From an uncultured virus (IMG/VR IMGVR_UViG_3300024999_000085) (Duplodnaviria; Heunggongvirae; Uroviricota; Caudoviricetes): 64,000 nucleotides of DNA. The stretch is from IMG/VR virus record IMGVR_UViG_3300024999_000085. The stretch is one strand, 5' to 3'. Positions 11,642-26,537 of this stretch are shown here, piece by piece. A program made the position numbers and the translations under genes. The notes below the pieces were generated by a model. That model saw only the letters and a list, made by a program, of their open reading frames with translations. It searched no databases and had not been told where the DNA came from. Numbering within the stretch: position 1 is the stretch's first letter; every line of letters begins with the position of its first letter.

Positions 11642-11889
11642 GTAATTACCTCCTTTAAATTTTAAAATTATTAATCAGCAAAATCTCACCACATATAAAT
11701 GCTATTATAAAAAGCAGTATAAAAATATTAATTACCCATACTCTTATTAGATATTCCCTGTTTAAAATGTTTTGTATAAAACACCATGAGAAACCAAGTA
11801 TGAGCATACCTAATATTATTATAAAACAAATATAGAGAATATTAAATAATATATCTAATCACCTCTTTAATTTAATTTATTCTTATACA

Positions 11890-12037
11890 GGAAGGAGATT
11901 CCTCTGAGATTTTACTCCCAGAGGAATGGATCACAATCTACCAAGCCATCATGCTAATGGTATTTATATTACTGACATTTATAACTTATTCGCTATTTGC
12001 CCGAATAGCAAGTTTTAAATGTCAAGGTTGGATTTAG
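11890..12037. ncRNA. putative structured intergenic RNA
   Basis: stems TGACATTTA/TAAATGTCA, GCTATT/AATAGC, CCAT/ATGG and ATTCCTCTG/CAGAGGAAT. Confidence 0.4.
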
Positions 12038-12038
12038 G

Positions 12039-12482
12039 TTAGAATCCTGTTTGTCTGGTATAAAAATTAATACTACCTTTACCAATCACTCTTACTTCTT
12101 CATCATTTTCTATATATCCTTCTTCATTTTTATATTCTACTCCAACAACTTCAATCACTACATCTCCATCAAAATCCTTAATCAATGTTGTTGTCCAAAG
12201 TCTATTAAGATGATAATCAAAATCAGGATTATATTTTAATACTTCATCTAATAAGAACACACTGACTAATCCTGCATCTGCACAAAATTGTCCTATTGGT
12301 TCATGAGTATCATTATTAAAAGTAGTACATGACCAATCACCATAAATTGTGTCTCTTGTGAGATATGTTTTAATACCTAACTTCTCCATATTCTCACCGT
12401 ATTCGCATAGCTCCCAATCATTTGTATCATTTTTTGTGATATAACATGGATCTGTTATGATAATGTCACCTTTAAATTTCAT
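12039..12482 (-). CDS. conserved phage hypothetical protein
   Basis: GDIIITDPCY, YGDWSC, FCADAG motifs; RBS. Confidence 0.8.
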   Translation of the reverse strand: MKFKGDIIITDPCYITKNDTNDWELCEYGENMEKLGIKTYLTRDTIYGDWSCTTFNNDTHEPIGQFCADAGLVSVFLLDEVLKYNPDFDYHLNRLWTTTLIKDFDGDVVIEVVGVEYKNEEGYIENDEEVRVIGKGSINFYTRQTGF

Positions 12483-12509
12483 ATTATCAATCTCCTTTAA
12501 TTTAATAGT

Positions 12510-12923
12510 TTACATACCAACCATCTTATAAAAATAGTTAGCTGCTTTGCTATCATCACCATCATACTTATAAACAATAGTGCCAACCAAACACCTATCT
12601 AAAGTATGGTAGGATGCAGGAATACTCTTATAATCTATATACGCATGGTATAAGGTTTCACCATTAAGACTACTTATATATTCAAAGATAACGTATTCAC
12701 CTACGCAATAAACATTAGTTACTACACCCCAATTAAATTCTAATCTTAAGTAATCAATTTTCTCATTATGTGTAGTTTCTTCAATACTATTTTCTGTTAC
12801 TACATCTAATTCATGATAAGAATATCTACCAAAATTAACAGGTAAGAATAATAAATTTCCTTTATCGTCTTTTACTAATTTGCCTAATACATGATTATGT
12901 TTTACAATATCGCCAGATTTCAT
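12510..12923 (-). CDS. hypothetical protein
   Basis: AAGGAG RBS. Confidence 0.75.
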   Translation of the reverse strand: MKSGDIVKHNHVLGKLVKDDKGNLLFLPVNFGRYSYHELDVVTENSIEETTHNEKIDYLRLEFNWGVVTNVYCVGEYVIFEYISSLNGETLYHAYIDYKSIPASYHTLDRCLVGTIVYKYDGDDSKAANYFYKMVGM

Positions 12924-23297: not shown

Positions 23298-24662
23298 CTA
23301 ACTGGCCTGTTCTTCTAATCCGTCAGTCTCAGGAATATCGTCAATGGTTAATTCTTCAACTTCAATACCATCATCCTGTGTACTATCTCCTGCAATTTCT
23401 TCGTTCTCAGATGCATCAGAAGTATCTAATAATGTCTCTGCATTATCTTCGCCCAAAACAGTATCATTTACCAATTCATTACCTAATTCTTTTGTCTCAT
23501 TTTCTGGATTGGTGTTTTCTGAAATATTAGCAGAATCGTCAGTGTTAGGAGTTTCATTCATAACTTCGTTAATAATACTTAAAACGTCATTATGTGTTAC
23601 TGGTTTTACTTCTTGTTGTTCTGTTTCAGTTTGTGCTTTAGTCTTAGGTGTTATCACCCATGCAAATGCATTATAATCATCATTGACTGCATTTAATCTC
23701 TTTTTCACACTCTCAACTTTTCCACTTGAACTTCTAGCAGCTTCATTGTAAATTTCGCTAATTGTAGCTGATTTAGTCCCTGCAAAAAACTTTCTAGTCC
23801 ATGCGGTGAACTTTTCTGTATTCCAAGTATCATTGGCAATTAACTTAGCCACTATAGGCATGATAGAAACTAAGTGAGTACGTGTAATCAATCTCTTAGC
23901 AACTTTGGCATCCTGTTTCTCACCTGTACCTGTTATTGCAGTATATGTTTCAAGAACTTTATCATACACTGTTGTTATTACTTCAGCCTGTTCTGGTGTT
24001 ATTTCAGCAGATTCAAGAATTGGCCTGATTTGCTTAGTTTCAAAACTTGGATTTTCACTATTCAGAATCACCCATGATTTAATAACAATATCTTCATTGG
24101 TGTATTTATTCATTGCCTTTTCGGTAAGTGCTGAATTAAATATTGAGTGTCTGCCAATTTCTTTGATGATTTCTATAGACTTGGCTTTAACTCTGGTTAA
24201 TTCAATCGAAGTAAGAGGTTTACCATTATTTAAACGGAAAAACATTTCATTTACTTCCTCATCTGTGATCCCGTCAAAATAGTAAATTGTTAAGGAATAA
24301 TCTTTAATTTCATCCTGTAATTCAATGGGAAGTTTTTCAAAAGTTAAACCATTAACATCCATAGTTTCATCAGATTCTAATGCAACTTCCGGCAAACCAA
24401 TCAATTCATACTGGTTATTTATGTATTTGCTAATTGCTTCTGATCTTTGTTTGCCATCAAGCATACTATAAATATTATCTTCTTTAGTTGCATAAAATGG
24501 CGGTATTGGATAACCTTCAATCATCGAATGAATCAAAAGTGATTTTCTTGATTGATCCCACACATAGCCACGTTGTACGGCGTTATCAAATTTAACTGTG
24601 CCTTTATCAATAGACTTAGTTAGTTGCTTTGCGCTCCAAGGAATATTAGCTTTCTTTAACAT
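23298..24662 (-). CDS. DUF262 (ParB/Srx-like, GmrS-type) domain protein with acidic tail
   Basis: VQRGYVW, LLIHSM...YPIP, LDGKQR, FFRLNNGKPL motifs. Confidence 0.85.
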   Translation of the reverse strand: MLKKANIPWSAKQLTKSIDKGTVKFDNAVQRGYVWDQSRKSLLIHSMIEGYPIPPFYATKEDNIYSMLDGKQRSEAISKYINNQYELIGLPEVALESDETMDVNGLTFEKLPIELQDEIKDYSLTIYYFDGITDEEVNEMFFRLNNGKPLTSIELTRVKAKSIEIIKEIGRHSIFNSALTEKAMNKYTNEDIVIKSWVILNSENPSFETKQIRPILESAEITPEQAEVITTVYDKVLETYTAITGTGEKQDAKVAKRLITRTHLVSIMPIVAKLIANDTWNTEKFTAWTRKFFAGTKSATISEIYNEAARSSSGKVESVKKRLNAVNDDYNAFAWVITPKTKAQTETEQQEVKPVTHNDVLSIINEVMNETPNTDDSANISENTNPENETKELGNELVNDTVLGEDNAETLLDTSDASENEEIAGDSTQDDGIEVEELTIDDIPETDGLEEQAS

Positions 24663-25541: not shown

Positions 25542-25766
25542 TTAATATTTATTCAATATACCATGATTACTAATTGCATATCCACACCAAGGACAATAAT
25601 CAATACTTGTAATATATTTTGCTTCATTTTTATAACTTTTTAAACTTACACTTGCACCATTACCATTTTTACTCATACCAAAAAAGTTATCATTAATAAC
25701 ATATGCAAATTGCTCACACATACTAACCATTATATTAGTTTTAACATCATATTTACATTTATTCAT
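25542..25766 (-). CDS. small Cys-motif protein
   Basis: IDYCPWCG; AAGGAGG RBS directly after the ribozyme. Confidence 0.75.
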   Translation of the reverse strand: MNKCKYDVKTNIMVSMCEQFAYVINDNFFGMSKNGNGASVSLKSYKNEAKYITSIDYCPWCGYAISNHGILNKY

Positions 25767-25790
25767 TTATATAAACCTCCTTCTAATTCT

Positions 25791-25861
25791 AACTACCTCC
25801 TGCCTATTTAAGACAGGAACGCTTCTGGCCTAAAGTTCTATTTATACTCACCAGAATGAGT
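25791..25861 (-). ncRNA. pistol self-cleaving ribozyme
   Basis: P1 ACTCA[TTCTGG]TGAGT, ATAAATAG, P2 AACT, TTAGG, pseudoknot CCAGAA, GCG, P3 TTCCTGTCT/AGGCAGGAG, GT cleavage site, P2' AGTT. Confidence 0.9.
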
Positions 25862-25898
25862 TACTGTTAAATGGTTTACGCCACAACACACATTATCT

Positions 25899-26111
25899 TT
25901 AGTCTTGTAAACTTTTTTGCTTTAAAACATAACTAAAACTATATTGGTTGTTTTTACTTTCAACATTTCCAGTTGTATAACATCCACTACTGTCTAGTTT
26001 TTGTTTTACTTTCTGAGAATTTTCTTTTGTGTTAAAGTTTGCCATATTATTATGAATACCTATTGATATTGTTCCTTTATTGTCTCTGATGACTTTTGGA
26101 GTATTAATCAT
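25899..26111 (-). CDS. hypothetical protein
   Basis: GGAGG RBS, TTGACA/TATAAT promoter. Confidence 0.7.
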   Translation of the reverse strand: MINTPKVIRDNKGTISIGIHNNMANFNTKENSQKVKQKLDSSGCYTTGNVESKNNQYSFSYVLKQKSLQD

Positions 26112-26537
26112 TATACATACCTCCATTTATTTAATTTCTAATTCATTATAGCACACCTTAATACTAATGTCAACAATTATTTTTACTTTCTTACTTACAT
26201 ATTATAATGAATTGAAGTTTTTATTCCATAATTTACCTATTTAATATTCTTCCTTTCCCAATCTGCATCGTCACTAATCGGCTCTCCGCAAAATGATTAC
26301 ACATACTAATCATTTTACTAGTCTCAATATCGTATTTACATTTTTGCATGTCAATTTATTTCCTCCTCACCTTTAATTTATAATAAACAATTGATCCTGA
26401 CAACAATACAACCAAAGATACAATAACAAATAATTTTAACATTCTATATCTCCTTTCAATCCAATCTCACCTCTTCCGCATACTTATATTATATCAAATA
26501 TGCAGAGTTGATAGACTAGATATAATTTGTGTTGCTC

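Follow-up and report, generated by a model that had tools for sequence, protein, structure and literature searches.

The window analysed here is a stretch of 64,000 nucleotides from an uncultured virus assigned to the Caudoviricetes (IMG/VR record IMGVR_UViG_3300024999_000085). Its open reading frames are nearly all short and on the minus strand, with a GC content of 21-32%, and most belong to no Pfam family. Among the genes that could be named are Thg1, UvdE, a LAGLIDADG nuclease, a GmrSD-like domain and DUF932. The minus strand carries eleven near-consensus promoters of the TTGACW-N16-18-TAWAAT type, the plus strand none, and a repeated family of TTGCAA-type promoter-like sequences is also found; together these suggest many short transcription units. 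The locus described here follows the prevailing orientation, a point that the earlier sequence-only reading had left unstated, and consists of a promoter, the small gene ORF70, a pistol ribozyme, a Shine-Dalgarno sequence (SD) and a second small gene, ORF74 (Table 1). The promoter is the best of 21 sites, is found upstream of ORF70 in those related loci that extend far enough, and would place the transcription start near 26138; between 24600 and 27200 we found no terminator-like site. ORF70 has no Pfam or PHROG family and no usable Atlas match, while two homologue searches with it gave two strong clusters each. ORF74 likewise has no Pfam or PHROG family and no relative among the viral contigs searched, and shows a weak feature likeness to small prophage/DUF6980 proteins. 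A truncated paralogue of ORF74 lies upstream of the promoter, and an imperfect 80-nt direct repeat (75%) shared by the two copies (26349-26233 and 25766-25542) flanks the promoter-ORF70-pistol block. In one related locus (L131), ORF74 itself is shortened to 47 aa.

Table 1. Features of the pistol locus, in window positions.
Feature	Position	Strand	Basis
Truncated ORF74 paralogue, 38 aa, occupant of the variable slot that precedes the promoter	26233..26349	-	13/21 identical, E 2e-9
Sigma-70/sigma-A-type promoter, TTGACA-17-TATAAT with TG extension	26145..26173	-	12/12 match
ORF70, 70-aa protein, own SD GGAGGT; the fixed neighbour on the upstream side of the ribozyme	25899..26111	-	Loci of relatives
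Pistol ribozyme (RF02679)	25791..25861	-	55.2 bits and base-by-base check
P1, 5 bp, with 6-nt loop forming the pseudoknot 5' strand (25856-25851)	25846..25861	-	Base-by-base check
Catalytic core	25820..25833	-	Window sequence; residue roles from PMC6154101, PMC6795133
P3 hairpin, 9 bp; would remain on the 5' cleavage product, at its 3' end	25797..25819	-	Base-by-base check, folding
Predicted scissile G^U linkage, 2-nt P3/P2 junction G25796-U25795	25795..25796	-	Homology with G53-U54
Shine-Dalgarno AAGGAGGU of the downstream gene	25775..25782	-	SD-like sequence kept in 16/16 complete loci
ORF74, 74 aa, occupant of the variable slot behind the ribozyme	25542..25766	-	ORF list, loci of relatives

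The ribozyme had been proposed from the letters of the sequence as a complete pistol with intact pairing, and this is borne out by covariance search and base-by-base inspection. Rfam cmscan of the whole window returned a single match at gathering score, to the pistol family (RF02679), running from 25861 to 25791 on the minus strand with 55.2 bits against a cut-off of 34.5 (E 2.6e-7) and covering the model end to end (positions 1-68 of 68); five further matches that a laxer scan reported at E<=5 each lie far under their own cut-offs. P1 forms all five of its pairs (25861-57 with 25850-46), P2 all four (25837-34 with 25794-91) and P3 all nine when G-U is allowed (25819-11 with 25805-797). The 6-bp pseudoknot (TTCTGG/CCAGAA) is Watson-Crick throughout, UUCUGG at 25856-51 pairing with CCAGAA at 25828-23 and so linking the P1 loop to the P2-P3 junction. 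When env25 numbering is transferred to the window ribozyme by position, U29 falls on 25833, purine 32 on G25830, G33 on 25829, the pseudoknot 3' strand on 25828-23 and G40-C41-G42 on G25822, C25821 and G25820. U29, purine 32, G33, G40, C41 and G42 are active-site residues of pistol (PMC6154101, PMC6795133), and A32G is tolerated (PMC6154101). The window copy has these residues in common with RF02679 and env25 (5K7C), as well as the three stems, the pseudoknot and the 2-nt G-U junction, to which the cleavage site had already been assigned and where homology also places it. Compared with known pistols it shows no structural departure, G at position 32 being the tolerated variant. The earlier statement that the ribozyme lies about 15 nt upstream of a ribosome-binding site holds for the cut, which is 13 nt from AAGGAGG (25782-76), 15 nt from GGAGG and 29 nt from the ATG at 25766, but not for the 3' end of the element (25791), which is 8 nt from the SD.

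Membership in the pistol class is thus virtually certain. From its sequence the ribozyme very probably also cleaves; cleavage and the end groups assumed for its products are taken from established pistol chemistry, in which a 2',3'-cyclic phosphate and a 5'-OH arise under physiological conditions at a rate above 10 per minute, and four natural pistols from other organisms cleaved on testing (PMC4604425). The marks of a glmS-type riboswitch-ribozyme are absent, with no glmS match in Rfam anywhere in the window and no Pfam family for ORF74. In GenBank phages, a query with the ribozyme sequence found no related ribozyme, its only matches being 20-nt stretches within HNH genes (E 0.9), and blastn with a 2.3-kb region including it gave only short, weak matches.

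The low-GC, phage-like setting is typical for this class, which has been linked to phage genes and Firmicutes and is frequent near phage genes (PMC4604425; Harris et al. 2015). The single IMG/VR relative of the window (locus L001 in record G001; 142.8 kb, 71% complete) runs collinear with it, with 19,215 of the 64,000 window bases covered. Scanning 29 of the 36 G001 ORFs of at least 230 aa for families, we found an integrase, an MrpR-family protein, FtsK, DNA and RNA ligases and helicases, and no virion protein among these 29. The best GenBank phage match of a ligase is Clostridium phage c-st (42%), those of window ORF 23298-24662 are Enterocloster phages (36%), and the best-matching sequencing runs are groundwater metagenomes from one study, which may itself be the source. 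We infer a large, temperate, phage-like element whose host is a low-GC, clostridial Firmicute; the element may instead be a phage-plasmid. Judged on the window and G001, the ribozyme is a single-copy feature, with one match in the 64-kb window and one pistol above cut-off in G001. Three of the scanned G001 ORFs are TnpB-like, one of them about 390 nt behind the pistol, and in G001 a RAGATH-18 RNA (L271, 12989-13058; 70.3 bits) stands right behind an IS605/TnpB-like gene (11819-12898). A CRISPR-like repeat searched for in the window gave one match with three mismatches, which 8 of 100 shuffles equalled. L001 contains one CRISPR-DR2-like repeat at 424-453 (32 bits against a cut-off of 37; also in L132, L137 and L138), which has no second copy in G001 and is absent from the window.

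A metagenome scan with ORF70 yielded 16 loci (L131-L146), which with the window and L001 make 18 loci examined. The ribozyme is whole in 16 of them, L136 and L139 ending inside it; among the metagenome loci, 12 of 16 score above the Rfam cut-off, and L132 and L134 hold the element yet fall below. The loci are partly non-independent, L001, L137 and L138 being identical over 6,225 nt, and represent nine distinct ribozyme haplotypes. Throughout the 16 complete loci the ORF70-pistol-SD block is constant, the cut lies 27-31 nt from the AUG and a strong SD follows 13-17 nt from the predicted new 5' end. The proteins encoded downstream, however, fall into seven groups that BLASTP at E 1e-3 does not connect, and in the sole pairwise DNA alignment, that of the window with L001, similarity ends at the ATG. 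Because the spacing is constant, the downstream genes are exchanged and similarity stops at the start codon, the ribozyme belongs with the promoter-ORF70 block and not with one downstream gene. Swapping is not peculiar to the ribozyme, since the region is mosaic throughout and the gene upstream of the promoter varies between related loci too. Across the nine haplotypes 97.6% of the alignment cells pair and five pairs change on one side with pairing kept, two-sided compensatory changes number 0, and the result as a whole is no better than the shuffle control (500/500); the pattern is consistent with the fold, yet it is not covariation evidence. L143 has one broken P3 pair, one relative has a U-G in the pseudoknot, and position 32 varies only between A and G. 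A scan with a 17-nt pattern returned four loci, namely L001 again and three unrelated ones.

Some further details of the relatives are worth recording. An 80-aa ORF70 homologue known as a protein record (P0002) has terminal residues that match the translation of ribozyme P1, and its stop codon would then fall in the conserved junction. In L144 and L145 the spacer between ORF70 and P1 is about 32 nt shorter. In the runs X1 and X2 contig depth piles up over window positions 25796-25883 and loose ends start at 25862, the 5' edge of the ribozyme, so that near-identical ribozymes seem to follow other upstream sequences in the same samples. The identical 6,225-nt copies L137 and L138 lie 272 kb apart on one 541-kb contig, in which a genome of about 270 kb was probably assembled in duplicate.

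A cut within a polycistronic mRNA fits this arrangement, given the 12/12 promoter, the co-oriented ORF70 in between and the lack of a terminator-like site in the region searched. Bacterial and phage ribozymes have been proposed to process polycistronic RNA (PMC6765202, PMC3088659, PMC8782182), although what intergenic ribozymes do in bacteria and phages is described as a matter of proposal rather than demonstration (PMC6765202). For the locus studied here, we lean slightly towards a reading in which constitutive cutting uncouples ORF70 from the cargo gene and gives the latter a standard short 5'-OH leader. RNA from the promoter at 26173 would run through ORF70, and the ribozyme, once folded, would cut itself at G25796^U25795 with no ligand needed. 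The upstream piece, about 343 nt for a start near 26138, would be the ORF70 message and would end in the P3 hairpin and a 2',3'-cyclic phosphate, an end that is terminator-like without halting transcription. The downstream piece would begin with the 5'-OH expected from pistol chemistry (PMC4604425), followed by a 13-nt A/U-rich leader and the strong SD, and its stability would rest on ribosome loading against attack by a 5'-exonuclease of the RNase J type. The fixed ORF70 unit would in this way be uncoupled from whichever cargo follows, and the cargo would start translation in the same standard way whatever its context. Transcription of the locus, the stability of the products and any benefit are what we infer, and whether the effect is to stabilise or to destabilise is not readable from sequence.

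It is conceivable that the same cut damps the cargo gene in a glmS-like manner, opening an entry for 5'-exonucleases and lowering cargo expression relative to ORF70. RNase J1 degrades the 5'-OH glmS product, and 5'-OH products are its substrates (PMC3997798). In the present case no hairpin stands at the 5' end of the 3' product, whose first bases form only weak pairs (-6.4 kcal/mol over 66 nt), and the promoter is a perfect consensus. Nevertheless, we regard damping as improbable: the strong SD 13-17 nt from the new end in all complete loci is a named stabiliser, a strong SD near the 5' end stabilising mRNA in Bacilli (PMC3997798), and the available text of PMC4604425 reports no ligand dependence for pistol. 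Hardly any credence is given to a translational switch in which the uncut ribozyme masks the SD and cleavage frees it. In folding predictions, cutting raises the unpaired probability at four SD positions from about 0.67 to 0.98-0.99 or leaves it level. However, none of the four helices includes the SD, most of the SD core is already unpaired in the uncut RNA, and the sole hairpin touching the SD is identical in both states (pseudoknots not modelled).

Short-leader formation by constitutive cutting, as favoured here, can be set against the position of other pistols. An exact core pattern, which biases the sample of contexts, matched at least 123 loci in IMG/VR and at least 120 in GTDB. Requiring the pseudoknot, P1, P2, P3 and the G-U site kept 72 of 126 listed IMG/VR matches and 36 of 121 listed GTDB matches, and removal of near-duplicates and short flanks left 38 and 15 pistols, respectively, among the matches listed. 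In the IMG/VR set, 27 of the 38 listed pistols have the ATG of an ORF of at least 40 aa no more than 60 nt from the cut (median 35 nt), compared to 10.0±2.8 for random positions (maximum 19 in 200 draws) and 5 on the opposite strand; 14 of the 38 also have an SD-like motif (control 2.5, maximum 8). Among the listed GTDB matches the count is 7 of 15 against a control of 3.4 (maximum 7) and 6 on the opposite strand, an enrichment that is weak and not clear. A looser parser, which mis-parsed some cuts, found an SD and start within 50 nt in 11 of 49 listed pistols including that of the window (control 3.1). The 29 nt from cut to AUG in the window is therefore typical for viral pistols, and the 27 of 38 suggests that making short leaders is the usual job of the class. 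In the literature searched we found no such count of cut-to-start distances, and Weinberg et al. (2015) may already give the gene context.

A second form of the ribozyme complicates this picture. In five of the 16 complete loci, or three of the nine haplotypes (L001/L137/L138, L132 and L134), the core differs from that of the window by three clustered changes after the pseudoknot strand, an inserted U and two C→A. The G40-C41-G42 sequence is lost, leaving L001, L132, L134, L137 and L138 without the full set of catalytic residues. All three changes turn the strand into the reverse complement of the ribozyme's own 5' strand and flank, and the 6-bp pseudoknot helix grows to 17 contiguous pairs. 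Clustered changes that perfect a hairpin have been described for replication template switching (PMC8794818), and this three-change overwrite would be the pattern expected from a template switch. In folds of three loci per allele, with pseudoknots not modelled, pairing of the P1 5' strand with the core goes from a predicted 0.00 to 1.00 in the variant, and P3 falls from 0.98-0.99 to 0.06-0.28; ViennaRNA handles no pseudoknots, and near-zero probabilities for P1 and P2 were given no weight. Because the variant loses P1 and C41, each of which is reported to be important for pistol (PMC4604425, PMC6154101, PMC6795133), it is predicted to be inactive.

The window allele itself is only three changes short of a perfect 16-17-bp hairpin, and folds computed without pseudoknots allow its 5' flank to pair with the core and with the 3' strand of P2. 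This raises the thought that the element has a pistol-like fold but does not cleave, trapped by the near-palindrome with its own 5' flank. We consider such a trap very unlikely, as the extended helix has a probability of 0.00 and P3 one of 0.99 in the window allele, all core residues are present, and the four natural pistols from other organisms did cleave on testing (PMC4604425).

How widespread the variant is bears on what cleavage is worth to the element. In X1 and X2, contigs with the two C→A changes reach depths of 2.4 of 1,880-2,155 and 4.7 of 775, values that are summed contig depths and differ from allele frequency, and the form with the two C→A changes is the only one recovered from run X6, which belongs to a different study. 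The variant occurs with three different downstream genes and three different P3 loops. When IMG/VR was scanned for the variant core, 11 loci matched; on inspection by eye, the L001 copy alone is built like a pistol, and thus the allele was not found outside the window's lineage; in the literature searched, we found no inactive or template-switch ribozyme allele in a phage.

Since a core-overwriting allele is carried by a good part of the loci, cleavage may be dispensable. One explanation is a near-neutral passenger, a ribozyme that cuts, barely changes expression, rides along with the promoter-ORF70 block and decays in some lineages. The spread of the predicted-inactive allele over several cargo genes and P3 loops speaks for this, as does its being the only form from X6 and the only above-cut-off pistol in the 142.8-kb G001. 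We nevertheless think a passenger rather unlikely: six of the nine haplotypes keep the full core, variant contigs are at low depth in X1 and X2 (contig depth, not allele frequency), and the bias towards positions just before start codons among the listed IMG/VR pistols suggests selection on placement. A more speculative extension, which we offer tentatively, is that the pistol forms the fixed junction of a natural plug-in expression cassette (promoter, ORF70, ribozyme and SD), which would standardise the 5' end of any of many exchangeable cargo genes placed behind it. On this cassette reading a single template switch, by making a 17-bp hairpin out of the pseudoknot, would have produced the second allele, either as a natural knock-out or as a change to another kind of control, for example a site for a double-strand nuclease. 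If both the cassette and the allele were as proposed, the role of a pistol in vivo would be directly testable in its native context.

The leader produced by constitutive cutting recalls synthetic ribozyme insulators such as RiboJ, in which upstream RNA is cut away to leave a fixed leader before the ribosome-binding site. RiboJ is engineered, belongs to another ribozyme class and has an added hairpin. The window element, in contrast, has no hairpin at the new 5' end, and the likeness is one of function only. Hammerheads of phages and prophages likewise lie within phage polycistronic RNA beside small genes of no assigned function (Perreault et al. 2011, PMC3088659), and the 5' end of the HF2 transcript maps within 3 nt of the hammerhead cut (PMC3088659). 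Compared to these phage hammerheads the window element is of a different class and occurs as a single copy rather than in tandem (PMC3088659). With glmS and STAB-SD of Bacilli it shares a 5'-OH end before the coding region and a strong SD near the 5' end, respectively (PMC3997798). However, glmS is ligand-gated and located in a 5' UTR, whereas the window pistol is intercistronic and has no known ligand, and STAB-SD ends are made by nucleases, whereas the end considered here would be made by predicted self-cleavage (PMC3997798). The element itself is ordinary for its class. The value of the locus is that of a test case, which combines a defined promoter, a near-constant distance from cut to AUG over seven cargo genes and a natural allele predicted to be dead.

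Two other roles, in tRNA processing and in cut-and-religate reactions, were considered for the window copy and rejected, as the window has no tRNA genes and G001 (71% complete) no RtcB. Elsewhere in IMG/VR, pistols do occur inside tRNA gene clusters (L072, L073 with tRNA-Asp at 670, and L105 with tRNA-Pro at 142). Several of these end a few bases before a tRNA 5' end, and one contig holds four copies. They possibly serve 5'-side tRNA processing, and in this they would presumably recall theta ribozymes.
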